Source: a virus
Length of the DNA: 64,000 nt
Reading direction: 5' to 3' (one strand)
IMG/VR virus record: IMGVR_UViG_3300029319_008466
Span: 18,991 to 82,990 of that record
The notes below the pieces were generated by a model, which was not told the DNA's origin, ran no database searches, and worked only from the letters and a program-made list of their open reading frames with translations. The translations under genes were made by a program, and so were the position numbers. The stretch's first letter is position 1, and each line of letters starts with the position of its first letter. Shown in pieces: positions 1 to 13,000 of the stretch.

Positions 1-282
1 GTCAGAACGGTGAAAATGTCGTTAGAAAACGGAGATATGATTGAGCTATTAAATTATAAATCACATCCAGAAAAGCCCGATATGAGCAGAAAAATAACAC
101 AAATTGGATGCTCTCATGTTGCCCTAACTGTTCCCGATTTGGATGAATTATATAATAACTTAAAACGACAGCACGTTGTCTTTAATAGTCCTCCGCAGTA
201 TTCTCCTGATGGATATGCAAAGGTTACTTTCTGTAAAGATCCAGATGGGTCGCTTGTTGAATTAGTGGAGGTGCTGGTTTGA
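1..282 (+). CDS. VOC/glyoxalase-family protein (5'-truncated)
   Basis: Frame open from position 1; HVALTVPDLD and DPDGSLVELVE motifs typical of the C-terminal half of a VOC protein. Confidence 0.75.
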   Translation, partial: VRTVKMSLENGDMIELLNYKSHPEKPDMSRKITQIGCSHVALTVPDLDELYNNLKRQHVVFNSPPQYSPDGYAKVTFCKDPDGSLVELVEVLV

Positions 283-1019
283 GCTTTATAGAAAACTTGT
301 TTTCGTTGCAGGGGAAAGTCGCAATTGTAACCGGCTCGGCTCGTGGCAATGGTAAAGCAATTGCAGAAGGTCTGCTTTCGGCTGGTGCTACGGTTGTTGC
401 AGTTGATATAATAGAACAAGAGATTGGTTGCAAAAAAGTTTTATGTGATATTACGGACACAAAACAATTAAACAATTTGGTACAAAACACGATAGAAGAG
501 TATGGGAAAATTGATATATTAGTAAACAATGCCGGAGTTAGTCTTGGAAGTGAGGATGAAGAGTACCCAGATCATCTTTGGGAAAAAACATTAGATGTCA
601 ATATTACGGCACCATTTAGGCTGACAAAGCTTGTTTCCGAACACATGAAAGGTCAAAATAGCGGATCGATAATAAACATAACAAGCTTAAATGCCGAGCT
701 TGCATTTCCAAACAACCCTGCTTATATGGCATCTAAGGGTGCGTTAAAACAATTTACAAAATCACTGGCATATGATTTGGGGTCTTACGGAATTCGTGCC
801 AATAATGTTGGTCCCGGTTATATCAAAACTGATATGACTAAAAAAAGCTGGAAAGATCCAGAAATGAATAAAATAAGAAAAAATAGAACTTTATTAGGTA
901 GATGGGGATATCCAGAGGATTTGGTGGGAACAGTTGTATTTTTATCTTCTAATGCTTCGCGTTTTGTAACTGGTCAGGATTTATATGTGGATGGCGGCTG
1001 GCTCATGAAGGGATTATAA
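279..1019 (+). CDS. Classical SDR oxidoreductase (gluconate 5-dehydrogenase/FabG-like)
   Basis: TGSARGNG, LVNNAG, YMASK and VDGG motifs; TTG start after GGAGG. Confidence 0.9.
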   Translation: MSFIENLFSLQGKVAIVTGSARGNGKAIAEGLLSAGATVVAVDIIEQEIGCKKVLCDITDTKQLNNLVQNTIEEYGKIDILVNNAGVSLGSEDEEYPDHLWEKTLDVNITAPFRLTKLVSEHMKGQNSGSIINITSLNAELAFPNNPAYMASKGALKQFTKSLAYDLGSYGIRANNVGPGYIKTDMTKKSWKDPEMNKIRKNRTLLGRWGYPEDLVGTVVFLSSNASRFVTGQDLYVDGGWLMKGL

Positions 1020-1020
1020 A

Positions 1021-1812
1021 ATGCACTATAATTTTACAGCTTTTGATGAATTTGAGATATTTTCTTCCAAGAGCAATATAGAGCAATATAGAGAGTTTAA
1101 GCTCAACGAAGTTCAGAAAAATGTTTCTTTTATAAAAAGGCATTTTAAAAACAAAATAGATGTTTTAGAGATTGGCTCTGGAAATTCAAAGTTCTTATAT
1201 GCTTTGGAGCAACACAATCTTTTGAATTTTGGATATGGCGTAGATGTCAGCAAGAGCAGAGTGGACTTTGCTGACGAATGGAAGAGGGATTTAAGATTAA
1301 ATAATATACACAACATGCACAAAAATATATTAGATTCAGATATGAGTGAGTTCCCACAAGTTGATTTAATATATTGTGTCGATATGGCCTTTCAACTTTT
1401 CGATCCAGCGTCTCAAGGCAGTGATATAAAATTTTTAAATAGTTGCTATAAAAAACTAAAGAAGGGGGGTAAAATAATATTAGAACTGGACAACAATAGT
1501 AAAATATTAAAAAGCCTTGAAAACAACGAGGCCAAGTTATGGCAGGAGTTTGACAGCTCAGATCCCTGGAGGTATCTGTTGTGGGATTGCAACTATGAAC
1601 CAAAAAGATCGTATTTACATATCAAAAAAACTTTTATAAAAAGAGATCTATCTGAAATTTCTAGAAATAACATATGTTTAAGAGTTTATACACACAACGA
1701 CATAATTAATATACTAGACAAACTTTCTTTTAAAAAAATGCAAATATATAACCACTGGGATAAGAAAGGCGACATGTCTGATGATGAATTTATAATTATA
1801 GGAGAAAAATAA
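1021..1812 (+). CDS. Class I SAM-dependent methyltransferase
   Basis: Motif I VLEIGSGNS, GVDVS, LKKGGKIIL. Confidence 0.8.
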   Translation: MHYNFTAFDEFEIFSSKSNIEQYREFKLNEVQKNVSFIKRHFKNKIDVLEIGSGNSKFLYALEQHNLLNFGYGVDVSKSRVDFADEWKRDLRLNNIHNMHKNILDSDMSEFPQVDLIYCVDMAFQLFDPASQGSDIKFLNSCYKKLKKGGKIILELDNNSKILKSLENNEAKLWQEFDSSDPWRYLLWDCNYEPKRSYLHIKKTFIKRDLSEISRNNICLRVYTHNDIINILDKLSFKKMQIYNHWDKKGDMSDDEFIIIGEK

Positions 1813-3422
1813 TGGCAAAACAAGATAAGGTTCGTAAAACACCACAAATTAAGCCACCAGTTTTTTCGGCAAATGTGGATTTCAAACCAAAAAAAAATAA
1901 AGGATATCAAAACAGGGTACTTTTATTAAATCCTCCGACCGATAGAACTCAATTTGTGGGATCTGACAATTATTTCCCTCTTGGGCTCATAATGCTTGCA
2001 ACAGTTCTTCGAGGAAATGATGATGTAGCAGAAATTATGGATATTAATAATGATTTCTTTCATCGTGATTTGGATGATGATCTTTTTATACAATATATGA
2101 ATGAGGTTGTACTACCATATGTTGAAGAATTCAAGCCCGATATGGTTGGCATTGGCGGCACTTTTTCTGGAGCATTTAAATATACGAAAATTATTGCAAG
2201 AATGGTGAAAAATAAGTTTCCAACCATCCCCACTATCGTAGGTGGAAATCATGCTAGCACATTTAAGGGAATGGTACTGGAAAGGTTTAGGTATATAGAT
2301 TATGTTATGATTGGGGAGGGAGAATATACTTTTCCTGAATTTTTACACTCAGTTATACACAAAAACAACGAAGGGCTTGAGCTTGTTGATGGCATATGTT
2401 ATAGAAAAGGCGGACACAGAGCGGTGCCCTATGATGTATCACTTCAGGACGACCACACACCGGCAGCCGAAATTATTACACAACAAAAGAAATTTTATAT
2501 TAATAATTTAGATGAATTGCCAAAACCGGATTTTGACATTGTTGGTGTTGATAAATATTATATGGATACATCAGATTGGTATAATCCTCACAATATAGAA
2601 GTTGGACAACCATTTCCCATTATATCCAGTAGAAGTTGTCCCATGAGATGCACATTTTGTAATATGTGGCACGTCCATGGTCCAAAAATAAGATATAGAA
2701 GCGCAGAAGATGTTGTTGACGAAATAGAATATTTATATCACACACACAATGCAAGATATTTCCAATTTATGGATGATAACTTTACATTTGATAAAAAACG
2801 TGTTATTAAAATGATGACCGAGATTAAAAGAAGAGGATTGAAAATCTCATATGATACTCCGAACGGTATTGCAATTAATCGACTGGACGAGGATGTTATT
2901 CGAGCAATGGTAGAAGGTGGTTTGATTAGAATAAGCATTGCAATTGAGAGCGGTTCACAAAAAATAAGAGAGATTATGATGAAAGGCCTCAAACAAGACA
3001 AGATTTATGAAGCGGCGAATGAATTGGCAAAGTATCCACACGTATTTGTAAAAGCATTTTTTATTGTTGGAATGCCCGAGGAAACAGAAGAGACCTTAGA
3101 AGAAACAAGAAGTATGATTAAAACTCTTCCAATAGATAAATTCTCTATCAATTACGCTACGCCATTTCCTGGTACTGCATTGTTTAATCAATGTAAAGCA
3201 AAGGGAATGTTGCGCTATGAAGTAGAAGACTATGTTGAGATTGATGGTCATCAATTAAGATCAGATAGACCTCATTTTAAGCCATACGAATTAACCGAAC
3301 AGCAATTGATGGATTTTATTGAGTGGGGTGATGAGTATATTAAAACACTCCCAGATAAGACCGGAAAATATGACCCACGAGGTGCTGGCGACATTGCCTC
3401 CTATGGTAGTGTATTTAACTGA
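1812..3422 (+). CDS. Cobalamin-binding radical SAM protein (class B methyltransferase-like)
   Basis: N-terminal B12-binding domain (PLGL, VGGNHAS, GEGE); SRSCPMRCTFC (CxxxCxxC); DDNF, IESGS and FIVGMP motifs. Confidence 0.9.
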   Translation: MAKQDKVRKTPQIKPPVFSANVDFKPKKNKGYQNRVLLLNPPTDRTQFVGSDNYFPLGLIMLATVLRGNDDVAEIMDINNDFFHRDLDDDLFIQYMNEVVLPYVEEFKPDMVGIGGTFSGAFKYTKIIARMVKNKFPTIPTIVGGNHASTFKGMVLERFRYIDYVMIGEGEYTFPEFLHSVIHKNNEGLELVDGICYRKGGHRAVPYDVSLQDDHTPAAEIITQQKKFYINNLDELPKPDFDIVGVDKYYMDTSDWYNPHNIEVGQPFPIISSRSCPMRCTFCNMWHVHGPKIRYRSAEDVVDEIEYLYHTHNARYFQFMDDNFTFDKKRVIKMMTEIKRRGLKISYDTPNGIAINRLDEDVIRAMVEGGLIRISIAIESGSQKIREIMMKGLKQDKIYEAANELAKYPHVFVKAFFIVGMPEETEETLEETRSMIKTLPIDKFSINYATPFPGTALFNQCKAKGMLRYEVEDYVEIDGHQLRSDRPHFKPYELTEQQLMDFIEWGDEYIKTLPDKTGKYDPRGAGDIASYGSVFN

Positions 3423-3433
3423 CAGAGGTGTAA

Positions 3434-3790
3434 GTGTCAAGTTTGAAAATGAATTATGTCCCTAAAGGGTGGGGATTTGAGAAGTGGATTGTAAATTGCG
3501 ATGAATATTGTGGAAAATTACTTTATTTTGTTAAAGGCAAACGATGTTCTTGGCACTACCACGAACTAAAAGATGAAGTTTTCTATATTCAGTCTGGGAA
3601 AATGTTGGTAAAATATTCTGATGATGACGATATTGAAAATGCAAAAGAACTAATATTAGAAAAAGGCGATAACTTTCACGTTTATCGAGGGTTGCGCCAT
3701 CAAATGATTGCTCTGCAAGATACAGAATTGTTTGAGTTTTCAACCCAACACTTTGATAGTGATAGCTATAGGATTCAAAAAGGTGATTGA
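3434..3790 (+). CDS. Cupin-fold sugar isomerase-like protein
   Basis: PKGWG-E, SWHYHELKDEVFYI and LRHQM cupin motifs; start may be ATG 3449. Confidence 0.8.
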   Translation: MSSLKMNYVPKGWGFEKWIVNCDEYCGKLLYFVKGKRCSWHYHELKDEVFYIQSGKMLVKYSDDDDIENAKELILEKGDNFHVYRGLRHQMIALQDTELFEFSTQHFDSDSYRIQKGD

Positions 3791-4095
3791 TGATTTATTA
3801 CATCGATATAGATGAGACAATCTGCTATTATGACGGAGACAGACATTATCCAGATGCTCTGCCAAATCAGGAAAGGATAAGCAAGATTAACGCCCTATAC
3901 GATGAAGGGCATAAAGTTGTTTATTGGACTGCCCGAGGCGGAACCACCGGAATTGACTGGACAGACACAACACGCGAACAGTTAATCAAATGGGGTGCAA
4001 AACACGACGAACTAAAAATGTGGAAGCCAGCATATGATGTTTTTATATGTGATAAGGCAATAAATTCAGAGAGGTTTTTCAATGAAGAAGGTTAA
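3787..4095 (+). CDS. Small HAD-superfamily phosphatase (capsule-biosynthesis phosphatase-like)
   Basis: DIDETI motif I, WTARG motif II, KP..DVFICDKA motifs III/IV. Confidence 0.8.
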   Translation: MMIYYIDIDETICYYDGDRHYPDALPNQERISKINALYDEGHKVVYWTARGGTTGIDWTDTTREQLIKWGAKHDELKMWKPAYDVFICDKAINSERFFNEEG

Positions 4096-4996
4096 GGTTA
4101 ATTTATTTGACAGCCTGGGTCCAGACAATTATTATGAGTATTGGCAAAGCCACAATTTTTCTAGTGAATTCGAGCCCAAGAAAGTTCAATGGGTTTATGA
4201 AAGCCGTGGTAAGGGGTATGAAAAATATGATGGTGTCACAGTTTTTACAGACAAAGATATACTGTCTCCGTGGGTTGATCGGGTTGATACAAAATATAAA
4301 ATAGCATGGCTCGTAGAGTGCAAAGCGATTCATCCTTTTTCATATAAACAAGTTGTACAATTTGAAGATAAGTTTGATTATATTTTTACCTTCGACGAAG
4401 AGTTGTTAAAAAGGGGTGACAAGTATATTAAAAACCTTATAGGGACTTCCCGAGTTTCAAATGAAGATGCGGGTGTACACCCTAAAACAAAGCTTCTGTC
4501 ACTAATCGCATCAAAAAAACAATGGACAAAAGGGCACAAACTTAGACATATTGTAGCGGAATCTATCAAGGATAAATATCCTGTGGACCTCTGGGGCACT
4601 GCGTATAAGCCATTTGGACTAAACAATCAGGGTCTTTCCGCCGCTGCAATCCGAGAGGGTAAAAGCGAGCCATTAAGAGATTATAATTTTAGCATTACAA
4701 TAATGAACTCGAAAGAAAATAATTATTTTACCGAAACTTTAGTCGATGTTTTCAGACATGGAACAATACCGATTTTTTGGGGTTGTGAAAACATTGGAGA
4801 ATACTTTAATGAAAAGGGAATTTTAAAATTTAATAGTGCCTCTGAATTAATAACGATACTTGACAACTTAACTCCAGAGTTGTATAATGAAAAAATAGAA
4901 TACGTTAAAGAAAATTATGAATTAGCAAAAAAGTATGTTTCTATGGACGATACTTTTGCAACCAATTTAATTGAAAGGGTATTGAAAAATGAGTAG
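4082..4996 (+). CDS. Glycosyltransferase, GT10 (alpha-1,3-fucosyltransferase)-like
   Basis: YNFSITIMNSKENNYFTETLVDVFRHGTIPIFWG resembles the GT10 donor-binding motif, with substitutions. Confidence 0.7.
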   Translation: MKKVKVNLFDSLGPDNYYEYWQSHNFSSEFEPKKVQWVYESRGKGYEKYDGVTVFTDKDILSPWVDRVDTKYKIAWLVECKAIHPFSYKQVVQFEDKFDYIFTFDEELLKRGDKYIKNLIGTSRVSNEDAGVHPKTKLLSLIASKKQWTKGHKLRHIVAESIKDKYPVDLWGTAYKPFGLNNQGLSAAAIREGKSEPLRDYNFSITIMNSKENNYFTETLVDVFRHGTIPIFWGCENIGEYFNEKGILKFNSASELITILDNLTPELYNEKIEYVKENYELAKKYVSMDDTFATNLIERVLKNE

Positions 4997-5399
4997 TAGA
5001 AAATATTTACCAACACTATCAGAACTGGTGGATAGGCTTTCAATTGTACAGTTAAAAGAAGTTTTTATTACAGAACACAAGGAAGAATATGCACAAGAGA
5101 TATCTGATATATGTCACGATATTGAAATAATATTGGAAAATTCGGATAGTATTACTGCCGATACGGTGCGTGCAATTGTGGTTTTATCACAAATGAACTT
5201 GCATATTTGGCATAATGAATCAAACTATCGAAAGGGAATTAAAGATGGCAACAACCTTGAGCTTACCCATGGGTTAAATGGAATTCGCAATACGGCAAAA
5301 AACAAGATACAAGAAATTGTTGGTGGTCGTAAAGATTACAAAATAGATTGTCTAGCGGCTGAGTTTAAGGATTGGGAAGTTAGTTGGAAAAATGATTAA
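4989..5399 (+). CDS. Conserved helical hypothetical protein of glycan clusters (DUF4254/DUF6165-like)
   Basis: ELVDRLSIVQLK, NLHIWHNE and NGIRN..KNKI pattern; coupled overlaps on both sides. Confidence 0.5.
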   Translation: MSSRKYLPTLSELVDRLSIVQLKEVFITEHKEEYAQEISDICHDIEIILENSDSITADTVRAIVVLSQMNLHIWHNESNYRKGIKDGNNLELTHGLNGIRNTAKNKIQEIVGGRKDYKIDCLAAEFKDWEVSWKND

Positions 5400-5865
5400 G
5401 GATGTGAAGTATTACGAGCCCGATGCTTATACAGATTATAGAGGTGATCTGTGGACTCTGTGGCAATCAGGAGATTGTGATTTAAGCTTTAATCATGATA
5501 AGGTTTCCACTTCTCGTAAGAATGTGCTTCGCGGAATTCATGGCGATTTTAAATCTTGGAAATTAGTAACTTGTTTACATGGAGAACTGTACTTTGTAAT
5601 GGTTGACAATCGCAAAAATTCTGAAACCTATAAAATGTGGAATTGGACAATACTAAGCCCCCACAACAAGAAACAAGTTCTTTTACCACCTGGCGTCGGC
5701 AATGGTTTTTTGGTTTTAAGTGATCATTCTGTTTTTCATTATAAGTGGGCATATGAAGGAAAATACCCAGATGTACAAGATCAGTTTACTATTAAATGGA
5801 ATGATTCGTCCATAAATATTGATTGGCCAATTACAAACCCTATTTTACAACCAAGAGATAAATAA
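5392..5865 (+). CDS. rmlC: NDP-4-keto-6-deoxyhexose 3,5-epimerase (RmlC family)
   Basis: DYRG, NVLRGIHG, LPPGVGNGF and IKWND..INIDWP motifs. Confidence 0.85.
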   Translation: MIKDVKYYEPDAYTDYRGDLWTLWQSGDCDLSFNHDKVSTSRKNVLRGIHGDFKSWKLVTCLHGELYFVMVDNRKNSETYKMWNWTILSPHNKKQVLLPPGVGNGFLVLSDHSVFHYKWAYEGKYPDVQDQFTIKWNDSSINIDWPITNPILQPRDK

Positions 5866-6497
5866 TGAATGTAAAAATACCACCTCATTTGCGGAAAGTG
5901 AGGGATGTAAGTTTAACTCCGCAAGAACTAATTGATTTTGAAGCAAAGGTCAGAGACTATTATGAAGCTGGTAAAATTAAAGGACCAATTCATTTAGCTA
6001 AAAACAATGAAAATGAACTAATACATATTTTTCAATATATCAGCAAAGATGATTGGGTTTTTGTGCCATGGAGAAATCATTATCAGGCGCTTTTGCACGG
6101 AGTGAATCCAGACAAACTATTAAATTGGATCATAGAGGGCAGGAGTATGGGCACTAATAATGTAAATCCAAATTTTTATGCATCATCTATTGTGGGAGGT
6201 ATTATTCCTATCGCTGTGGGTGCCGCTGTAGCCCTTAAGAGAAAAGAAACGACTCGTCGTGTGTGGTGTTTTGTGGGAGACATGACAATGGAAACTGGCG
6301 TGTTTCATGAGGCATATAAATATGTTAAGAACTTTGATCTACCATTACAGTGGGTTATAGAGGATAATAATATGAGCGTTCACACTCCTACCGAAATGGC
6401 GTGGAATAATAAACAAAGAGTTCCTGAAGATGTAATCTATTATGAGTATGAAATGGGCTATCCTCATCACGGAACTGGCAAGTGGGTGAATTTTTAA
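5865..6497 (+). CDS. ThDP-dependent enzyme, E1-alpha-like subunit (short, 210 aa)
   Basis: GPIHL, WRNHY, SSIVGG; ThDP motif GDM-x-EDNN; YPHHG. Confidence 0.85.
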   Translation: MNVKIPPHLRKVRDVSLTPQELIDFEAKVRDYYEAGKIKGPIHLAKNNENELIHIFQYISKDDWVFVPWRNHYQALLHGVNPDKLLNWIIEGRSMGTNNVNPNFYASSIVGGIIPIAVGAAVALKRKETTRRVWCFVGDMTMETGVFHEAYKYVKNFDLPLQWVIEDNNMSVHTPTEMAWNNKQRVPEDVIYYEYEMGYPHHGTGKWVNF

Positions 6498-6498
6498 A

Positions 6499-7035
6499 AT
6501 GCGCTATAAAGAAGAAATTATTAGAGCAATGAATTGGCTTGCAGAGAAAGAAGATACCGTATTTTTGGGACAAGCTTGCAAGGTCAGTGGCCACGCTATA
6601 TCAAGTACTATTACAGACGTTCCACAAGAAAAACGTATTGAGCTTCCTGTATTTGAAGAAACACAACTCGGAATATCTACAGGCATGGCTTTAGAGGGTT
6701 ATGTGCCCATCACCATGTACCCCAGATTTGATTTTTTTATTTTAGCAATGAATCAGTTGGTCAATCATTTGGATAAAATGAGAGACATGTCAAAAAATGA
6801 CATGAAACCAAAAGTAATTATCCGTGTCGCTGTTGGGGCAAAAACACCAATTGATGCCGGACCACAACACACTCAAAACCATACTGATGCGTTGAGGTTA
6901 ATGCTTACTGATGTCAATGTTGTCGAACTTACAGAGCCAGAGCAAGTATTTCCATCTTTCAAAGAGGCATATGAAAGAGAAGACGGGCGAGCAACCTTGT
7001 TGGTAGAACATGGAGAGTTTTATGTCTCAAAATAA
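6499..7035 (+). CDS. ThDP-dependent enzyme, E1-beta/transketolase pyrimidine-binding subunit (no C-terminal domain)
   Basis: ELPVFEETQLG, GMALEG, NQLVNH and GPQHTQ motifs; only 178 aa. Confidence 0.85.
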   Translation: MRYKEEIIRAMNWLAEKEDTVFLGQACKVSGHAISSTITDVPQEKRIELPVFEETQLGISTGMALEGYVPITMYPRFDFFILAMNQLVNHLDKMRDMSKNDMKPKVIIRVAVGAKTPIDAGPQHTQNHTDALRLMLTDVNVVELTEPEQVFPSFKEAYEREDGRATLLVEHGEFYVSK

Positions 7036-8203
7036 ATTTAACTGGTCGTTAATTAATGACAACATCACCATTGAAGATAAGCTGGCAATGGTTTCGTTTA
7101 TATCTGCACCAAATGTGAGATTTACAAATGGAGCCAAGGTCAGAGAATTCGAATCAGCATGGTCGGAATGGGAGGGTGTTAAAAATACCACATTTGTAAA
7201 CTCTGGAGCCAGCGCCAATTATATTATGATGTCTGTCGTTAAAGAGTTGAAAGGCGCAGGCGAGGTTGTTGTTCCCCCTCTCGGCTGGGTTTCTGATATC
7301 TCTCCTGTTGTTAATTTAGGAATGACCCCTGTGTTTGTTGACATTGACCCTAAAACACTTTGCATCAGTTATGAAAACATAGTACAAGCAGTTACTGAAG
7401 AAACAGTGGCTATTGTTATTGTGCATGCTTTGGGGTTTAATGGTATTGATCAACGAATTATTGATTTTGCAAAAGAAAGACAAATCATACTTATTGAGGA
7501 TTGTTGTGAAGCCCACGGCGCGACATATAATGGACAAAGAGTAGGTAGCTTTGGAGATATGTCTAATTTTTCGTTTTATTTTGGACATCATATTACTACA
7601 ATTGAGGGCGGCGTTGTTTGTACAAACAACGACACGCTTCATGAGTATGTGAGACTTTTTCGTTCGCATGGCATGACGAGAGAAACATCAGCACAATTTC
7701 AAAAAGAATATCAAGAAAAGTATCCTAATTTAAATCCGTTATTCACTTTTGCCGTACCGGGATATAATATGAGAAATGCAGAAATTAATGCAGTTTTAGG
7801 TCTGCAACAAATGAAAAGACTTGATTACAATATCCAAAGAAGAATTGATAATATGAAATTATGGAATTCGAGTTTGAATTCTGCAATTTATTATACTGAT
7901 TTTATTTTGGAAGGTAATAGCAACTTTGCATTGCCGCTTGTTTTGAGGCAACCTAATAAAGAAAGATTTAATAATATTTGCTCCATTTTGGAACAAGAGA
8001 GGGTAGAATATCGAACGGGCACAGCGGGTGGTGGTAATCAAACGTTGCAACCTTATTTGGTGGAAGGTAAGTACGATTATAGAGTAGTCGGCGATCTAGA
8101 TTATGTAAACCACATCCACCACTATTCTTTATATATTGGGAACCACCCAGAATTAAAAGATAAACAAATTATTGAATTATGTAATAGGATTAACAATGTT
8201 TAA
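7022..8203 (+). CDS. PLP/PMP-dependent NDP-4-keto-6-deoxyhexose 3-dehydratase (ColD-like; DegT/DnrJ fold)
   Basis: NSGASAN and IEDCCEAHGA; FSFYFGHHITTIEGG has His at the position of the aminotransferase Lys; no RfbH-type Cys cluster; start placed at ATG 7022 after GGAG. Confidence 0.8.
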   Translation: MSQNKFNWSLINDNITIEDKLAMVSFISAPNVRFTNGAKVREFESAWSEWEGVKNTTFVNSGASANYIMMSVVKELKGAGEVVVPPLGWVSDISPVVNLGMTPVFVDIDPKTLCISYENIVQAVTEETVAIVIVHALGFNGIDQRIIDFAKERQIILIEDCCEAHGATYNGQRVGSFGDMSNFSFYFGHHITTIEGGVVCTNNDTLHEYVRLFRSHGMTRETSAQFQKEYQEKYPNLNPLFTFAVPGYNMRNAEINAVLGLQQMKRLDYNIQRRIDNMKLWNSSLNSAIYYTDFILEGNSNFALPLVLRQPNKERFNNICSILEQERVEYRTGTAGGGNQTLQPYLVEGKYDYRVVGDLDYVNHIHHYSLYIGNHPELKDKQIIELCNRINNV

Positions 8204-9155
8204 AAATAAAAGAGTGCTTGTAACCGGCGGCCACGGCATGATTGGTCGTGAGTTGGTGAAATTGTTGGTTGACCTTGGCGCACTTGTAACAGTCGCAGAT
8301 ATTAGTGAAAACACAAATCTTGAAGGAGTTGAATATAAACAAGTCGATTTATGCTTTTTTGACCAATGTATGGAAGTTTGTAAGGACCAGGAGATTGTTT
8401 TTAATTTAGCGGGCATTAAAGGTTCTCCAAAAATGTGCGCAGAACAACCCGCAGATTTTATGGTACCCATGCTTCAATTCAACACAAACATGATGGAAGC
8501 CGCCATGAAGCACGAAGTCGAGTGGTATTTATATACAAGCTCAGTCGGTGTATACAAGCCCGCAGAAGTCTTAAAAGAAGACGATGTTTGGTCCACGTTC
8601 CCATCGCCAAATGACAGATTTGCCGGATGGGCAAAAAGAATTGGAGAATTGCAAGCTGAAGCATATGCGATCCAACATGGTAAAAGCAATATATCAATTG
8701 TTAGACCTGCAAATGTGTATGGAAATAATGACAACTTTAATCCAGCAAACGCCATGGTTATTCCTTCGTTAATTAGAAAGGCTCATGAAAATGATGTTCT
8801 TGAGGTATGGGGTGATGGAACGGCAATCCGTGATTTTATTCATGCCAAAGATGTTGCACTGGGAATGCTCCACGTTGTTGAAAACGGAATTACAAAGCCC
8901 GTTAACTTAGGTAGTGGAGATGGCGTTGCGATTAAAACTATTGCTGAAATTGTTGCAAAGAGATTTGGTAAGGAAATAAAGTGGCTAACTGACAAGCCCA
9001 CAGGAGACGCCAGAAGAGTTTTTGATATGAGCAGGGCGTATGATTGTGGATTTAAACCAAGTGTTAGTGTTGAGAATGGCATTAATGATACAATTGATTG
9101 GTTTTTAGAAAATAAGGAAATAATCGACAAGAGATATAATGCCTTTACAAAATGA
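8196..9155 (+). CDS. Extended SDR, GDP-L-fucose synthase/epimerase-like (atypical)
   Basis: GGHGMIG, RPANVYG..DNF and VWGDGTAIRDFIH; the YxxxK position reads AGWAK; start placed at ATG 8196. Confidence 0.8.
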   Translation: MFKNKRVLVTGGHGMIGRELVKLLVDLGALVTVADISENTNLEGVEYKQVDLCFFDQCMEVCKDQEIVFNLAGIKGSPKMCAEQPADFMVPMLQFNTNMMEAAMKHEVEWYLYTSSVGVYKPAEVLKEDDVWSTFPSPNDRFAGWAKRIGELQAEAYAIQHGKSNISIVRPANVYGNNDNFNPANAMVIPSLIRKAHENDVLEVWGDGTAIRDFIHAKDVALGMLHVVENGITKPVNLGSGDGVAIKTIAEIVAKRFGKEIKWLTDKPTGDARRVFDMSRAYDCGFKPSVSVENGINDTIDWFLENKEIIDKRYNAFTK

Positions 9156-9879
9156 TAAAGTTTTAATCACCGGCACTAAAAGCGGACTCGGTAAGTATTT
9201 GTCAAAGCAGTTTACTGAGTGTTTTTGCCTCAACAGGGAAAACAAACAAGATGTTATAGATAAGGCGCTACAAGTACAATTAATTGTTCATTGTGCCTTT
9301 AACACAAAGCAAGACGCCAACACATATCAATTGTTAAAAGATAATATATTTTTAACAGAACAGTTGTGCAATTTAAGTTTAAGCCGCTTCTTTGACAACA
9401 AGTTTGTATATATTTCTTCCGTTGATGTGCATAATAAGAAAAAAACAAATTATAACACCATGAAGCTTTATGCAGAGTCTATTGTTAAAAATCATTGTAA
9501 TAATTATTTGATCCTAAGATGTCCCGCACTGTTGGGTGCCGACATGAGAAAAAACAATTTTCTCAAAATTGTTGAAGATAAAAATCCTAAACTATCTTTG
9601 ACAAAAGAATCAAGCTTTAATTTTATAACACACCATGATATACTTAAAATCATAAGATATGCTTATAATAACAACATAAGCGGCACCTATGATGTTGTTT
9701 CGCATGGAGATATTACTTTAGAACAAGTTGCCTCGATGTGTAAAAAATCTTGTTCATTTGGTGATTACACATACAATACACCAAACGTCACTAATCAAAA
9801 ACTTCTTGCTGATTTTGATTTTATGAATAAAAGTTCTGTGCAAGTGGTACAAAAATTTATAAAGGAACACTATGGCTGA
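9139..9879 (+). CDS. NAD-dependent epimerase/reductase (extended SDR, short)
   Basis: ITGTKSGLG, YISSVDV, YNTMK (YxxxK). Confidence 0.75.
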   Translation: MPLQNDKVLITGTKSGLGKYLSKQFTECFCLNRENKQDVIDKALQVQLIVHCAFNTKQDANTYQLLKDNIFLTEQLCNLSLSRFFDNKFVYISSVDVHNKKKTNYNTMKLYAESIVKNHCNNYLILRCPALLGADMRKNNFLKIVEDKNPKLSLTKESSFNFITHHDILKIIRYAYNNNISGTYDVVSHGDITLEQVASMCKKSCSFGDYTYNTPNVTNQKLLADFDFMNKSSVQVVQKFIKEHYG

Positions 9880-10843
9880 AAAACAAAAAATGTTAATCTG
9901 CGGTGCTACAGGGTTTATAGGGAGAAATTTACTTGAAAGGTATTGCTATGACGAAAAATATTCAGTTCGAGCAGTTTATAACATAAAACCAGCGCTGGAA
10001 CAATACAATGTAGAGTGGGTTCATGCTGATTTAAACAATATTAAAGATGTAAGGCGCGTTTTGCAGGATATCGATATTGTGTTACAGTTTGCGGCAACAA
10101 CATCTGGGGCGAACGATATTATTAATCGTCCGCACATACATGTTACAGATAATGCTGTCATGAATAGTTTGATTTTAAGAGAATGTTACGAACAGCATAT
10201 AAAACACGTTGTTTTTCCAAGCTGTACGGTCATGTACCAACCAGCAGATTATGCTCAAAAAGAATCTGATTGGAATGCACAGGATGAAATATTTCACACC
10301 TATTTTGGAGTTGGAAATACAAAAGTATATATTGAGAAAATGTGTGATTTCTTTTCTAGATTAGGCAGGACTAAACACACAGTGATGAGACATTCAAACA
10401 TGTATGGACCTTATGATAAATATGACTTGGAGCGCTCACATGTTTTTGGCGCAACAGTAACAAAGGTTATGACAAACACAAGTGGCATTCTTAATGTTTG
10501 GGGCACCGGGGAAGGCGCAAGAGACCTGTTGCATGTAGATGATTTAGTTAACTTTATTGATTGCGCTATAGAGAAGCAAGAATCTAATTATGAACTCTTT
10601 AATGTTGGGCTGGGCAAAGCTACAAAAATAATAGATTTAATCAAAAGCATTATTCATCATTCAGGAAAAAACCTGCAAATAGAATATGATTTATCTAAAC
10701 CTACAATACCCACTTCTTTGTTTCTTGATTGTACAAAGGCAAAAGAACTTCTCGGGTGGGAGCCACAAATCTCTATAGATAAGGGAATTGTTAGAACATT
10801 ACAGTGGTATAAAAATAACATTATGGATAAAACAAATGAGTAA
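9872..10843 (+). CDS. Extended SDR, GDP-L-fucose synthase/epimerase-like (atypical)
   Basis: GATGFIG, RHSNMYGPYDKY..SHV and VWGTGEGARDLLHVDD; the YxxxK position reads VGNTK. Confidence 0.8.
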   Translation: MAEKQKMLICGATGFIGRNLLERYCYDEKYSVRAVYNIKPALEQYNVEWVHADLNNIKDVRRVLQDIDIVLQFAATTSGANDIINRPHIHVTDNAVMNSLILRECYEQHIKHVVFPSCTVMYQPADYAQKESDWNAQDEIFHTYFGVGNTKVYIEKMCDFFSRLGRTKHTVMRHSNMYGPYDKYDLERSHVFGATVTKVMTNTSGILNVWGTGEGARDLLHVDDLVNFIDCAIEKQESNYELFNVGLGKATKIIDLIKSIIHHSGKNLQIEYDLSKPTIPTSLFLDCTKAKELLGWEPQISIDKGIVRTLQWYKNNIMDKTNE

Positions 10844-11849
10844 AAAAGTTGCGCTAATTACTGGAATAACGGGAATGGTTGGTTCCCATCTGGTTGATTA
10901 TTTGCTTGACAATACCGATTGGCAAATCCATGGATTTCTAAGATGGAATGATAGGCTTGATAATATAGAACATTTAATTCCCTTAATCAACAAAGAAGAA
11001 AGAATAAAATTATTTTATGGAGATCTTAACGATCTAAGTTCTTTGCTTACTTTGGTCCAGAGTTCTAATCCAGATTATGTTTTTCACTTGGCAGCGCAAA
11101 GTTACCCTCGAACAAGTTTTGATGCACCTTTAGAAACATTAGAAACAAACATCTTAGGTACGGCAAAGTTGTTAGACGCAATTAGAACCCTGGGTAAGAA
11201 TCCGATAATTCACGTCTGTGCCTCATCCGAGGTTTTTGGGCGCGTACCAAAAGAGTTTTTGCCAATTCACGAAGATGTAACTTTCCACCCAGCTTCTCCT
11301 TACGCTATATCTAAAGTTGGAACTGATTTAGTTGGAAGATTTTATGCCGAAGCTTATGATATGACAGTAATGACAACTCGCATGTTTACACATACCGGCC
11401 CACGCCGTGGGGATGTGTTTGCAGAATCAACTTTTGCGAAACAAATAGCCTTAATTGAAAGCGGACTGCTTCCCCCGGTCGTACAAGTTGGCAATTTAGA
11501 TTCAATGAGAACATGGGCTGATGTCAGAGATGCGGTTAGAGCTTATCATCTGCTTGTTACTAAAAATCCAATCCCAGGTGAATACTATAATATTGGCGGT
11601 ACATTTTCTTGCACCATAGGCGATATGTTAAAGTACTTAATAAGCTTGTCCACCGTAGAGCATATAAGGATTAAAACAGACCCTAATCGACTTCGACCAA
11701 TCGATGCAGATCTGCAAATACCTGATACACAAAAATTTACAAACCACACTGGGTGGGTTCCTGAGATTTCTTTTCAAAAAACAATGGAAGACTTGTTAAA
11801 CTACTGGAGAAAGCAGGTAAAAAGCGGGAGAGGGTTCCTTAAGCGATAA
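10836..11849 (+). CDS. gmd: GDP-mannose 4,6-dehydratase family protein
   Basis: ALITGITGMVGSHL, HLAAQS, SSEVFG, PASPYAISK, HTGPRRG and GNLDSMR motifs; start placed at ATG 10836. Confidence 0.8.
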   Translation: MSKKVALITGITGMVGSHLVDYLLDNTDWQIHGFLRWNDRLDNIEHLIPLINKEERIKLFYGDLNDLSSLLTLVQSSNPDYVFHLAAQSYPRTSFDAPLETLETNILGTAKLLDAIRTLGKNPIIHVCASSEVFGRVPKEFLPIHEDVTFHPASPYAISKVGTDLVGRFYAEAYDMTVMTTRMFTHTGPRRGDVFAESTFAKQIALIESGLLPPVVQVGNLDSMRTWADVRDAVRAYHLLVTKNPIPGEYYNIGGTFSCTIGDMLKYLISLSTVEHIRIKTDPNRLRPIDADLQIPDTQKFTNHTGWVPEISFQKTMEDLLNYWRKQVKSGRGFLKR

Positions 11850-12593
11850 ATGAAACAATCAAAGAAAATACTTGTAATTGGTGAAAGCTGTAGAGACATC
11901 TTTAACTACGGTACGTGCAAAAGACTATGCCCAGAGGCACCTGCTCCTATTTTTAATCCACAAAATACAATTGAAAATGGCGGCATGGCTCTAAATGTGT
12001 ACAACAATGTGGCATCCCTATCAGTCGAAGTCGATATTCAGACTAACAAAAATTGGGCAGATATTACAAAAACTAGATTTATAGAAACATCATCAAATCA
12101 TATGTTTATGAGGGTCGATGTTGGTGATCACACATACACTTTAAGTGATATAAAAAATATTAAATATGATGAATACCATGCAATTATTATTTCAGATTAC
12201 AATAAGGGGTATATCAGTGAAGAGCAAATACAAGAAATATCATTAAACCACAATCGTGTTTTCTTAGACACAAAAAAGATTTTAGGAGCTTGGTGTAAAG
12301 ACGTACATTTTATTAAAATTAATGAACAAGAGTATTTAAAAAACAAATATTTCATAACAGAAAACCTTCTTGATAAAACAATAATCACCCTTGGGCCCAA
12401 AGGGGCAAGCTTTAAAAATATTGTGTATCCTGTTGCAAAAGTCGAAATTAGAGACGTTGCTGGCGCAGGAGATTCTTTTATTGCCGGTCTGGTTGTTAAA
12501 TACATTCAAGATGAAAATATAATAGATGCAATAAAATTTGCTAATTCTTGTGCAACCAGGGTGGTTCAAAAACGAGGCGTGAGCATTGTATGA
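11850..12593 (+). CDS. PfkB-family sugar-phosphate kinase (HldE/RfaE domain I-like)
   Basis: RLCPEAPAP, GGMALNV, ISDYNKG and DVAGAGDSF motifs. Confidence 0.85.
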   Translation: MKQSKKILVIGESCRDIFNYGTCKRLCPEAPAPIFNPQNTIENGGMALNVYNNVASLSVEVDIQTNKNWADITKTRFIETSSNHMFMRVDVGDHTYTLSDIKNIKYDEYHAIIISDYNKGYISEEQIQEISLNHNRVFLDTKKILGAWCKDVHFIKINEQEYLKNKYFITENLLDKTIITLGPKGASFKNIVYPVAKVEIRDVAGAGDSFIAGLVVKYIQDENIIDAIKFANSCATRVVQKRGVSIV

Positions 12594-13000
12594 CAACAAT
12601 ATGGACAAACGGCTGTTTTGATGTGTTACATAGGGGGCATATAGAACTATTTAAATATGCAAAATCTTTGGGAACCAAATTGGTCGTCGGTATCGATTCC
12701 GACGATAAAGTGGCAAAAGATAAAGGCAGCAATAGACCTATAAATTACGCTAAAGATAGAAAGTTTATTTTAGAATCTATAAAATATATTGATGAAGTAT
12801 TGATCTTTAAATCAGCCCATGAATTAGAAAATTTAATTAAAAACACAAAACCGGATATAATGATAGTGGGATCCGATTGGAAAAACAAGAACGTTGTGGG
12901 TGAGCAATTTGCTGGAAAACTGCTGTTCTTTGATCGAGTCGGAAATTATTCAACTACAAATATTCTAAAACAAAAAGGAAACAACAACAATGACAAATAA
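12590..13000 (+). CDS. Sugar-phosphate nucleotidyltransferase (HldE/RfaE domain II-like)
   Basis: TNGCFDVLHRGH (HxGH), KG..RPIN, GSDW and STT motifs; ATG 12590 overlaps the upstream stop. Confidence 0.85.
   Translation: MTTIWTNGCFDVLHRGHIELFKYAKSLGTKLVVGIDSDDKVAKDKGSNRPINYAKDRKFILESIKYIDEVLIFKSAHELENLIKNTKPDIMIVGSDWKNKNVVGEQFAGKLLFFDRVGNYSTTNILKQKGNNNNDK

Follow-up and report, generated by a model that had tools for sequence, protein, structure and literature searches.

An uncultured T4-like marine phage, represented by an IMG/VR record of 82,990 bp, carries genes that appear to specify a self-contained pathway to a nucleotide-activated C-branched 3,6-dideoxy-heptose, a reading to which we give an even chance, with the individual steps assigned by homology or inferred. 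The genes span positions 3434-13000 of the 64,000-nucleotide window analysed here. All of those described below lie on the + strand at the coordinates given, and their starts and stops overlap or adjoin; positions 5392-13000 constitute a single same-strand operon with overlapping genes, and the full unit is wider, at about 3434-13000. The original prediction, which confined the pathway to 5865-11849, named genes that are all present where stated, but the real unit is larger. Overall, the genes that it reported were confirmed, whereas its interpretation is only partly supported, with the pathway logic holding up and the start from GDP-mannose not. The phage origin is borne out by the IMG/VR record and by the terminase, portal and baseplate genes on the same strand of the contig.

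Probable heptose-type enzymes of the operon

Two of the sugar-modifying enzymes are closest to heptose-specific proteins of known structure. The presumed GDP-mannose dehydratase (10788..11849, + strand; likely start ATG at 10836) is better described as an NDP-manno-heptose 4,6-dehydratase: it matches PDB 7us5, deposited as GDP-D-glycero-D-manno-heptose 4,6-dehydratase, with 376 bits (E 1.7e-111), compared with about 150 bits for true GDP-mannose dehydratases, and with the gmd equivalog it reaches 183 bits, well under the cut-off of 415. The RmlC-like cupin that had been noted is indeed present (5392..5865, +), but its closest solved relatives are deposited as GDP-D-glycero-4-keto-D-lyxo-heptose 3,5-epimerases (8db5, 161 bits, versus 88 bits for dTDP-sugar RmlC), and it scores under the rmlC equivalog cut-off, pointing to an RmlC-fold C3/C5 epimerase of the NDP-4-keto-heptose type.

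The flanks of the unit encode candidate activation enzymes. The PfkB-family sugar kinase (11850..12593, +) resembles HldE domain I, i.e., the heptose 7-phosphate kinase type: rfaE_dom_I is its best NCBIfam match (110 bits, under the cut-off), the sole solved match with E < 1e-8 is D-beta-D-heptose 7-phosphate kinase, and the cyanophage homologues are 49-53% identical. The overlapping gene (12548..13000, +) encodes a cytidylyltransferase-fold nucleotidyltransferase similar to HldE domain II (ADP-heptose type), with rfaE_dom_II as the best NCBIfam match (120 bits, cut-off 181.5); it is the only nucleotidyltransferase of its kind in the genome, and no NTP_transferase-family gene (ManC/HddC/RmlA-type) was found in the contig or in four related records, two of which are 92-100% complete. 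At the other end, a 118-aa metal-binding cupin (3434..3790, +; Pfam Cupin_2, E 7e-9) is a candidate sugar-phosphate isomerase that might replace GmhA; it shares 63-69% identity with a cupin of cyanophages S-SM2 and P-TIM68, the gene of which is grouped there with those for the kinase, the HAD protein and the nucleotidyltransferase, and no SIS-type isomerase was detected in the contig or in two near-complete relatives. The adjoining gene (3787..4095, +) encodes a 102-aa capless HAD-type phosphatase, a candidate heptose 1,7-bisphosphate phosphatase with a putative GmhB role. Its four HAD motifs (D7-x-D9-x-T11, T48, K80, D89) are invariant in 11 homologues, the match to HAD_PNKP is weak, and the S-SM2 homologues are annotated as 'phosphoheptose isomerase'.

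Given that the dehydratase and the epimerase are nearest to solved enzymes acting on GDP-D-glycero-D-manno-heptose derivatives, and that the operon includes the HldE-like kinase and transferase together with the mini-HAD, the pathway probably starts from a heptose and not, as had been proposed, from GDP-mannose. With heptose-type enzymes, the predicted product would be a nine-carbon branched 3,6-dideoxy-heptose (a nonose) rather than the yersiniose-like octose envisaged originally. On GDP as the carrier, another element of the original prediction, the evidence points both ways: the downstream enzymes look GDP/alpha-type, whereas the activating enzymes appear to be of the ADP/beta (HldE) type.

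The truncated ThDP-type enzyme and its partners

Between the epimerase and ColD-type genes lies a translationally coupled pair encoding a split, truncated ThDP enzyme. The mini E1-alpha (5865..6497, +; 210 aa) comprises only the diphosphate-binding (PP) domain and covers positions 7-176 of 300 in the E1_dh profile; the mini E1-beta (6499..7035, +; 178 aa), which starts 1 nt past the E1-alpha stop, comprises only the pyrimidine-binding (Pyr) domain, with Transket_pyr as the sole Pfam match. By the Pfam profiles, the former is missing its C-terminal third and the latter its whole C-terminal domain, and no 2-oxoacid_dh (E2), E3, lipoyl, Pyr_redox_dim or Transketolase_C domain was found anywhere on the 82,990-bp contig, in agreement with the initial description of the pair. 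The truncations presumably remove the E2-binding domain and the region bearing the His for reductive acylation. The E1-alpha carries the GDM...NN ThDP/Mg motif, and G138, N168, H43 and H201 are invariant, and D139 nearly so, among 38 family representatives. In the mini E1-beta, E53, the Glu that activates the cofactor, and Q123-H124 line up with residues of E1-beta proteins, and 24 homologues retain all of them. The AF2 model of the E1-alpha (pLDDT 95.9) has human PDH E1-alpha as its top structural match (Foldseek E 5e-13; TM 0.69 query, 0.41 target). The family-wide retention of the ThDP/Mg motif, the activating Glu and the Gln-His, along with the confident E1-alpha-fold model, suggests that the pair is most likely an active ThDP enzyme, and the missing domains, together with the lack of E2, E3 and lipoyl domains on the contig, argue that it is not a dehydrogenase component, as originally maintained.

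The mini proteins, of ~200 aa, form a family of their own (98 clusters at E < 1e-30) that marine phages and uncultured microbes commonly carry; we found no report of a biochemical test of this family. In cyanophages and in ~400-aa metagenome proteins, alpha and beta are fused as one chain.

The gene following the pair (7010..8203, +) encodes a 397-aa DegT-fold protein (Pfam PF01041, E 1.6e-71) with a GHHITT motif, in which His occupies the position of the aminotransferase Lys. Its top solved relative is ColD (2gms, E 3.8e-47), followed by E1 dehydrase, and its His-His aligns directly with that of ColD (HMMER). The motif is retained in 86 related loci, none of which has Lys at that site. A CxC motif is absent, the six Cys being at positions 118, 165, 166, 204, 324 and 391. 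The earlier assignment as a ColD-type protein free of an Fe-S Cys cluster is therefore upheld, and the protein is predicted to be a PLP/PMP-dependent NDP-4-keto-6-deoxy-sugar C3-dehydratase. The contig also carries a second DegT gene, the 449-aa product of which scores above the RfbH equivalog cut-off and contains C253-x-C255, and a separate module of YerE-like, PanB and RfbH genes is located upstream.

The 'several reductases' of the original prediction correspond to three SDRs, only one of which has the canonical YxxxK. This is the short RmlD-like SDR (9139..9879, +; 246 aa; Pfam Epimerase/RmlD_sub_bind; YNTMK), a candidate ketoreductase present in 19/80 loci and only in the ColD-containing operon type. 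The Fcl-like extended SDR (8172..9155, +; likely start ATG at 8196), the closest solved relative of which is E. coli GDP-fucose synthase, aligns Phe with Fcl Tyr136, Val with Cys109 and Asn with His179; its orthologues conserve GW.K, and their residue at the Tyr site is F, Y, I or H. In the third, a 323-aa extended SDR (9872..10843, +), Val replaces the catalytic Tyr of the closest solved relative and a Tyr lies 3 residues upstream (Y-x6-K), a spacing kept in orthologues; archaeal (DPANN) homologues adjoining an E1 pair are 55-56% identical.

Two further genes precede the epimerase. One (4082..4996, +) encodes a GT10-like glycosyltransferase (Pfam Glyco_transf_10, 38.2 bits, cut-off 23.9), a candidate transferase for the final sugar which accompanies the operon in 18/80 and 27/60 related loci; GT10 is a family of GDP-fucose-dependent fucosyltransferases. 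The other (4989..5399, +) encodes a 136-aa helical protein, the most conserved companion of the module, found in 57/80 loci and 74-87% identical across phages whose E1-alpha proteins are only 50-80% identical. It has 33 invariant columns, mostly polar, and an AF2 model with four helices (pLDDT 84); fold and family searches with it gave no informative match.

Proposed pathway and competing readings

We propose that sedoheptulose 7-phosphate might be isomerised by the cupin or by host GmhA, a tentative assignment. Judging from family membership and synteny, the PfkB kinase would then phosphorylate C1, the mini-HAD would dephosphorylate C7 and the HldE-II-like transferase would attach the nucleotide. 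Strong homology indicates that the 4,6-dehydratase would yield NDP-6-deoxy-4-keto-lyxo-heptose, from which the ColD-type enzyme, with PLP and glutamate, would remove the C3 hydroxyl to give NDP-3,6-dideoxy-4-keto-heptose; this C3 deoxygenation has been demonstrated in Campylobacter jejuni (PMC10440746). Following epimerisation next to the ketone by the RmlC-like enzyme, the mini E1-alpha/beta heteromer would decarboxylate pyruvate on ThDP and add the hydroxyethyl carbanion to the C4 ketone, forming a 4-C-acetyl tertiary alcohol, a step put forward by analogy with AviB1/B2, Pau11/12 and KbDH-alpha/beta and from the gene neighbourhood. The branch or ring might be processed by the short SDR with its canonical motif, by the two atypical SDRs or by all three, and the GT10-like transferase might deliver the sugar to its acceptor. 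As only the short SDR keeps the canonical Tyr, the steps after branching are guesswork.

Gene neighbourhoods support the order of dehydration, C3 deoxygenation and ThDP-dependent branching. The proposed coupling of a ThDP enzyme to the ColD-type step recurs in 54 of the 57 phage loci that encode a close orthologue of ColD: 37 have the mini pair, 16 have another, longer E1-like pair (25% and 21% identical) occupying the same place directly upstream of ColD, and one has a YerE-like enzyme and PanB. The mini pair lies right beside ColD at 25 loci in phages and 5 in prokaryotes, and the module is also found in MAGs of CPR, DPANN, SAR11 and Caulobacter. Each of the 80 phage loci retrieved with the mini pair contains one or more NDP-sugar SDR or epimerase genes, with RmlC-like and Fcl-like genes in 71 and 68 of them, respectively, and kinase plus nucleotidyltransferase genes in only 21. 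In many loci, the pair is accompanied by an RmlC-like and two SDR genes with no recognisable 4,6-dehydratase or ColD, suggesting that the acceptor is not always a 3,6-dideoxy sugar.

Homologues of all four C. jejuni enzyme types are encoded in the operon (PMC10440746), which would fit an unbranched NDP-3,6-dideoxy-heptose as in C. jejuni HS:5/HS:11, with the E1 pair serving a substituent or another sugar of the island; moreover, phage loci L150 and L161 have ColD, Fcl-like genes and the dehydratase with no ThDP gene in reach. We regard this as unlikely, given the recurrence of a ThDP enzyme beside close ColD orthologues, including the exchange for an unrelated E1-like pair at the same position, and the translational coupling of the pair between the epimerase and ColD genes; furthermore, the Fcl-like protein would have to act as the C4-reductase, yet lacks the catalytic Tyr. 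The route from GDP-mannose to a GDP-linked, yersiniose-like branched octose seems improbable to us as well. GDP-hexoses are the usual substrates of ColD, Fcl and GT10 relatives, HddA/HddC-type GDP-heptose activating enzymes are lacking and the host could supply GDP-mannose, but the dehydratase and epimerase scores, the heptose (HldE/GmhB) type of the kinase, phosphatase and nucleotidyltransferase, and the absence of a mannose-1-phosphate guanylyltransferase family gene from the near-complete relatives argue against it.

It is quite improbable that the pair acts before nucleotide activation, in the manner of a transketolase or DXP synthase, joining a C2 unit to an aldose phosphate and thus providing a ketose phosphate for the kinase, phosphatase and transferase. 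The E1-alpha has secondary matches to DXP_synthase_N and transketolase, the alpha domain occurs joined to an APH-type kinase domain in one metagenome protein, and in S-SM2 and P-TIM68 the fused pair lies among kinase, HAD, cupin and nucleotidyltransferase genes without ColD; nevertheless, the steadiest partners of the pair, the RmlC-like and Fcl-like genes, act only on NDP-4-keto sugars, kinase and transferase genes are much less frequent, and the pair sits directly beside ColD in the phage and prokaryote loci counted above. An auxiliary metabolic role as the E1 of a pyruvate or acetoin dehydrogenase working with host E2/E3 has next to no chance: although close homologues are annotated at source as 'pyruvate dehydrogenase E1 component alpha subunit' and PDH and BCKDH E1 come first in both sequence and fold comparisons, the scores fall far under the PDH equivalog cut-offs (86 vs 394 and 45 vs 321 bits), both subunits are truncated and sugar-nucleotide genes surround the pair in every locus examined. 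We favour the branched 3,6-dideoxy-heptose.

Comparison with known systems

The kinase, transferase, cupin and mini-HAD set resembles the 'LPS gene' cassette of T4-like cyanophages (T4-GC 304-308; P-SSM2, S-SM2, S-SSM7), which includes an annotated transketolase-domain protein and phosphoheptose isomerase and to which no function was assigned, the authors noting that it is uncertain if its genes work (PMC3037559). The four phage proteins share 41-69% identity with their counterparts in S-SM2 and P-TIM68, both of which carry the fused alpha-beta form; unlike the phage operon, the cyanophage cassettes lack ColD and the heptose dehydratase.

The C. jejuni HS:5/HS:11 GDP-3,6-dideoxy-heptose pathway shares the heptose 4,6-dehydratase, ColD-like PLP C3-dehydratase, RmlC-fold epimerase and Fcl-like SDR, but has no ThDP enzyme and an unbranched product (PMC10440746), whereas the phage operon carries the E1 pair. 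In addition, C. jejuni activates the heptose as GDP-alpha-heptose, whereas the phage has HldE-type genes, and the phage Fcl-like protein lacks the catalytic Tyr, in contrast to the C. jejuni pathway. The GDP-colitose pathway (Gmd, ColD, ColC) likewise combines a His-type PLP C3-dehydratase with a subsequent Fcl-like protein; in the phage, however, the 4,6-dehydratase is of the heptose type, the ColC/Fcl-like protein is devoid of the catalytic residues and the ThDP pair is inserted after the epimerase gene, upstream of ColD. In yersiniose A synthesis, 4,6-dehydration and C3-deoxygenation precede a ThDP-dependent step in which an acyl anion is added to the C4 ketone, and ketoreduction follows (PMC9306805). 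This logic, common to YerE/YerF and the YerE-like enzymes of erwiniose and caryophyllose, is the one proposed for the phage, but YerE is a single-chain acetolactate-synthase-like protein acting on a CDP-hexose from the Fe-S enzyme E1/RfbH, whereas the phage would use a split E1-type enzyme and a ColD-type dehydratase.

Close parallels are the E1-type (alpha-KADH2) C-branching pairs of actinomycete antibiotic pathways, namely, AviB1/AviB2 (avilamycin), Pau11/Pau12 (paulomycin), the aldgamycin pair and KbDH-alpha/beta (kibdelomycin), which take a C2 unit from pyruvate and attach it to a 3- or 4-keto sugar, yielding a tertiary alcohol (PMC12247030, PMC4425429, PMC4753412). KbDH-alpha/beta adds the C2 branch in vitro with pyruvate (PMC12247030), and paulomycin production is abolished in a pau11 knockout (PMC4425429). 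Like the phage pair, these are two-subunit E1-alpha/beta-like ThDP enzymes encoded amid NDP-deoxysugar genes without E2/E3. By published lengths, the antibiotic pairs are full length (Pau11, 325 aa; Pau12, 345 aa; PMC4425429), compared to 210 and 178 aa in the phage, the comparison with the antibiotic pairs, AviB1/B2 included, being one of published lengths and descriptions. Furthermore, the mini family is found in phages, CPR, DPANN and SAR11 with a predicted heptose acceptor, whereas the antibiotic pairs are from actinomycetes. Thus, E1-type sugar C-branching is already known, and what the phage most likely adds is a shorter pair, a setting in phages and uncultured microbes, and a predicted heptose acceptor.

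Phage setting and the minimal ThDP-enzyme pair

The window corresponds to bases 18991-82990 of an IMG/VR virus record with a length of 82,990 bp. Throughout the window, long ORFs lie on the plus strand, and the sugar operon is followed downstream by terminase, portal and baseplate-wedge genes. Because two relatives, at 186 and 194 kb, have completeness ratings of 92-100%, the contig belongs to a large T4-like marine phage. Public sequencing runs in which the operon occurs are metagenomes from marine or seawater samples, with no RNA runs listed among them. The operon is part of a glycan island of ~28 kb that starts upstream of the window. A megablast search of positions 5000-13000 against GenBank phages returned zero matches, no tRNAs were found in the window, and the T4 late-promoter motif TATAAATA was not enriched (8 found versus 6 expected). 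A literature search retrieved no paper describing the minimal E1 family or a branched-sugar pathway in a phage, nor any linking yersiniose-type sugars to phages.

The central feature of the operon is a pair of short proteins resembling the two E1 subunits of 2-oxoacid dehydrogenases. The E1-alpha-like protein (5865-6497; 210 aa) covers positions 7-176 of the 300 in the E1_dh profile and carries the ThDP/Mg motif, GDM...NN, in which G138 and N168 are invariant and D139 is nearly so among 38 homologues. Its AlphaFold model (pLDDT 95.9) superposes on the E1-alpha subunits of PDH and BCKDH, covering ~40% of those chains. In the E1-beta-like protein (6499-7035; 178 aa), Transket_pyr is the sole domain match, and the cofactor-activating Glu, E53, as well as Q123-H124, are invariant among 24 homologues. 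The original prediction that the pair lacks the beta C-terminal domain and has no E2 or E3 partner holds for the whole contig, from which the transketolase-C, E2, lipoyl and E3 dimerisation domains (PF02780, PF00198, PF00364 and PF02852) are absent; as a control, each of these domains was detected in 10-14 reference genomes. The alpha C-terminal third and the beta C-terminal domain are the parts of E1 used for interaction with lipoyl-E2, and their absence fits a free-standing carboligase.

Several assignments of the pair were rejected. Pyruvate or branched-chain 2-oxoacid dehydrogenase E1 is ruled against by the single Transket_pyr domain of the beta chain and the missing E2/E3 partners. The pair also scores far under the cut-offs of the PDH-type equivalogs, and there is a strong case that it is not a PDH component. 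YerE-like sugar-branching enzymes of the acetolactate-synthase fold are single chains with TPP_enzyme_N, M and C domains, whereas the phage pair is split and has the E1/transketolase domain order. Retro-acyloin (ring-cleaving) and ulosonic-acid decarboxylase roles were set aside, given that the constant partners of the pair are NDP-4-keto-sugar enzymes.

The alpha family is distinct and extensive, with ~1,900 similar proteins in metagenomes. An exhaustive profile search yielded 98 clusters at E < 1e-30, mostly proteins of ~200 aa; the few longer forms comprise fusions of alpha with beta, copies that carry inteins and a single fusion to a kinase. For instance, among the metagenomic homologues P0173, P0176 and P0196, some contain inteins (Hint or LAGLIDADG) and one is joined to a phosphotransferase domain of the APH type.

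Sugar-modifying partners and the probable heptose scaffold

Immediately downstream of the pair, the protein encoded at 7010-8203 has the DegT/aspartate-aminotransferase fold (PF01041, E 1.6e-71), and its top four PDB matches are ColD structures (E 4e-47). As noticed in the original prediction, it contains GHHITT and no Fe-S Cys cluster: in the HMMER alignment this motif falls on SHHIAT of ColD, His-His on His-His, Lys occupies the Schiff-base position in none of 109 related matches, and the cysteines (118, 165, 166, 204, 324 and 391) do not form a CxC. An RfbH-like DegT paralogue on the contig has C253-x-C255 and scores above the RfbH equivalog cut-off. Sequence comparison thus strongly supports the predicted function of 7010-8203 as a ColD-type C3-dehydratase, which would use glutamate to deoxygenate C3 of an NDP-4-keto-6-deoxy sugar.

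Three SDRs follow, of which only the 246-aa protein (9139-9879) is canonical. The Fcl-like SDR (8172-9155) has F-x4-K in place of the canonical YxxxK, and the 323-aa SDR (9872-10843) has a Y-x6-K spacing. Relative to Escherichia coli Fcl, the former carries Tyr136 to Phe, Cys109 to Val and His179 to Asn replacements; lacking both the Tyr of the Ser-Tyr-Lys triad and the Cys/His epimerisation pair, it was rejected as a GDP-L-fucose synthase of the Fcl/ColC type. Among its orthologues, the residue at the Tyr site can be F, Y, I or H, and GW.K is kept. Given that the Fcl-like and 323-aa SDRs are core partners of the mini pair even in loci without ColD and the dehydratase, their role may be central.

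Conservation within the module is highest in a 136-aa helical protein (4989-5399): phages with 50-80% identity in E1-alpha have 74-87% identity in this protein, 33 residues of which, mostly polar, are invariant. It also adjoins the dehydratase gene in a DPANN-type archaeal MAG. Searches with this protein produced sub-threshold DUF matches in Pfam, unnamed viral clusters in the ESM Atlas, nothing at E <=0.001 in Foldseek and generic helical hairpins (Z <=7.3) in VIA-align wide.

The enzymes expected to define the sugar scaffold point to a heptose. The dehydratase (10788-11849), initially read as a GDP-mannose 4,6-dehydratase, does not sustain that label: it reaches 183 bits on the Gmd equivalog TIGR01472, with a cut-off of 415, and ~150 bits with solved true GDP-mannose dehydratases, versus 376 bits (E 1.7e-111), in a comparison by score, with PDB 7us5, deposited as a GDP-D-glycero-D-manno-heptose 4,6-dehydratase. 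Likewise, the 'RmlC' designation of the epimerase (5392-5865) gave way to a heptose-type one, as this protein reaches 148-161 bits with eight chains of solved structures and only 88 bits with dTDP-sugar RmlC enzymes. Four of the eight chains are deposited as GDP-D-glycero-4-keto-D-lyxo-heptose 3- or 3,5-epimerases, and another, 7m14, is likewise labelled with GDP-heptose.

Directly after the dehydratase gene lies that of a PfkB kinase (11850-12593), the best family and structure matches of which are heptose 7-phosphate kinases (rfaE domain I, 110 bits, under the cut-off of 345). The cytidylyltransferase-fold protein at 12548-13000 is best matched by HldE domain II (rfaE domain II; 120 bits, under the cut-off of 181.5). 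An otherwise unannotatable ORF of 102 aa (3787-4095) shows the four motifs of HAD phosphatases, unchanged among 11 homologues, and adjoins a gene for a 118-aa metal-type cupin (3434-3790); the kinase, nucleotidyltransferase, mini-HAD and cupin also occur together in cyanophages S-SM2 and P-TIM68. Neither an NTP_transferase-family enzyme (ManC/HddC/RmlA type) nor a SIS-type GmhA was found in the contig or four related records. In bacteria, HldE leads to ADP-beta-heptose; in the phage, the dehydratase, epimerase, ColD, Fcl-like SDR and GT10-like protein (4082-4996) have relatives acting on GDP-sugars, and the sole activating enzyme is HldE-like. In the simplest reading of these similarities, the phage would carry a route from heptose phosphate to NDP-heptose. 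Overall, support for a heptose scaffold of the pathway is good.

Two S-SM2 segments (19998-20309 and 21639-21968) bear on the annotation of cyanophage genes. The small 'phosphoheptose isomerase' proteins of S-SM2 and P-TIM68 are mini-HAD homologues with HAD motifs and no SIS fold, and SSM2_211, a 'putative nucleotidyltransferase' encoded next to them, is a cupin. These cyanophage annotations are probably wrong.

Gene neighbourhoods and additional sugar modules

The mini E1 family is encoded on at least 186 IMG/VR contigs, from which 80 loci were fetched. The beta gene accompanies alpha in 78 of these. An RmlC-like gene is present in 71 loci and an Fcl-like one in 68; for the heptose-type dehydratase and ColD the counts are 43 and 38, and every locus contains at least one NDP-sugar gene. 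The same partners recur in 25 MAG loci from Pelagibacterales, CPR, DPANN archaea, Caulobacter and others.

The converse scan, covering 57 loci from phages whose ColD orthologue has >=55% identity, bore out the expected association, with a ThDP enzyme in 54. The mini pair is found in 37 loci; in 16 others, the place immediately upstream of ColD is taken by a different E1-like pair (277 + 304 aa), which shares 25% and 21% identity with the mini pair and is accompanied by a DJ-1/PfpI gene; and one encodes a YerE-like enzyme with PanB. Of the three loci without a ThDP enzyme, one is cut by the contig end. That an unrelated ThDP enzyme takes the place of the mini pair at this position is the best evidence available for the ColD product being passed on to a ThDP enzyme. 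In locus L141 (6715-10005), DJ-1/PfpI, a 220-aa cupin protein, a 129-aa protein and the 277 + 304-aa pair replace the mini pair directly upstream of ColD. Fifteen loci share this arrangement (L117, L123, L131, L133, L134, L138, L139, L142, L145, L146, L148, L149, L158, L159 and, in part, L143), with additional 2OG-Fe(II) oxygenase genes in L145 and L159.

Upstream of the window, the same contig (fetched as L002) encodes a second, independent branched-sugar module (L002:8332-14253). It comprises an ALS-like ThDP enzyme (L002:8332-10125; 597 aa, under the ALS cut-offs), PanB, an RmlD-like SDR, a dTDP-glucose-4,6-dehydratase-like SDR and a 449-aa RfbH-type DegT protein above the cut-off of the RfbH (Fe-S C3-dehydrase) equivalog. 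Much as aldolases furnish the donor for ErwE (PMC9306805), PanB could provide a hydroxylated 2-keto acid for use as donor. Next in the island, Maf/MptE-like, NeuB and CMP-ulosonate synthetase-like genes stand in series (L002:14222-16878), in what looks like a phage set for synthesising, activating and transferring a nonulosonic acid. Within the window, the segment ahead of the operon (279-3422) holds genes for a FabG-like SDR, a methyltransferase of class I and a radical SAM enzyme of the B12-binding type (best NCBIfam match a P-methyltransferase family, under its cut-off); several of the phage and MAG loci likewise have B12-radical SAM genes close to the E1 pair.

Proposed pathway and comparison with known systems

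In the pathway we propose, phage-encoded enzymes would convert heptose phosphate to NDP-heptose, which would undergo 4,6-dehydration, PLP-dependent C3-deoxygenation and epimerisation. As in the alpha-KADH2 pairs, the mini pair would decarboxylate pyruvate, and the hydroxyethyl-ThDP carbanion would add to C4 of the NDP-3,6-dideoxy-4-keto-heptose, giving a 4-C-acetyl nonose that a ketoreductase may reduce. We infer the C4-branching step from this analogy, and consider the chances that the branched-heptose reading is correct as a whole to be about even.

Part of the remaining probability falls to pathways that differ in product or scaffold. The ColD-type enzyme might yield an unbranched 3,6-dideoxy-heptose as the end product; with a ThDP enzyme in nearly all phage loci that have a close ColD orthologue, we regard this as unlikely. 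There is a similarly small chance for the GDP-mannose-derived octose originally predicted, a scaffold disfavoured by the dehydratase, epimerase, kinase and nucleotidyltransferase, all best matched by heptose-type proteins. A transketolase- or DXS-like role of the pair on sugar phosphates seems improbable, although the fused enzyme of cyanophages, which sits with activation genes and without ColD, leaves room for activity at the sugar-phosphate level. That the pair is a PDH auxiliary gene is scarcely credible.

Deoxysugars with C-branches have been described in a few O-antigens and in actinomycete antibiotics. If the branched-heptose pathway is correct, C-branching chemistry would be widespread in the ocean, considering the IMG/VR contigs, metagenomic alpha-like proteins and SAR11, CPR and DPANN genomes involved; the cyanophage 'LPS genes', unexplained since 2010, would gain a function; and annotations such as 'pyruvate dehydrogenase E1', 'transketolase' and 'phosphoheptose isomerase' would be corrected. 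A 388-residue, two-chain ThDP enzyme forming tertiary alcohols would be of interest to biocatalysis, and a phage-made nine-carbon sugar would add to the known building blocks of glycans and might act in protecting the virion or controlling host range. Combining all elements leads to a broader, decidedly tentative scenario: among E1-type ThDP carboligases the pair would be the smallest, and together with the atypical Fcl-like SDRs that accompany it, it would form a portable C-C bond-forming cassette, with which marine T4-like phages and CPR, DPANN and SAR11 cells make an undescribed nine-carbon 4-C-acetyl- or 4-C-(1-hydroxyethyl)-3,6-dideoxy-heptose; the phage would attach it to its own virion or the infected cell surface, and the same phage would make two C-branched sugars via two unrelated ThDP enzymes.

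The steps preceding branching have a precedent in Campylobacter jejuni HS:5, for which 4,6-dehydration, PLP-dependent C3-deoxygenation and epimerisation have been demonstrated (PMC10440746); as this work already supplies substrates as well as NMR and mass references (m/z 634.08, 616.08 and 600.08 in succession along the GDP-heptose series), the predictions are directly testable. As for the branching step, it is accepted that E1-type alpha-KADH2 pairs introduce the C2 branch of eurekanate, paulomycose, aldgarose and the kibdelomycin sugar, and in vitro KbDH-alpha/beta joins pyruvate to ketones that resemble sugars (PMC12247030, PMC4425429, PMC4753412). Like the AviB1/B2-like group, the mini pair has a counterpart (GDM...NN) of the ThDP/Mg motif GDG-X(25-30)-N and the activating Glu, and is encoded among NDP-keto-sugar genes with E2/E3 absent. 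It is set apart by the published sizes, with 210 + 178 aa versus full-length subunits of ~325 and 345 aa in Pau11/Pau12 (PMC4425429). We therefore treat the mini pair as a putative new, minimal variant of the alpha-KADH2 sugar-branching enzymes, one that departs from the group in a defining feature, full length.
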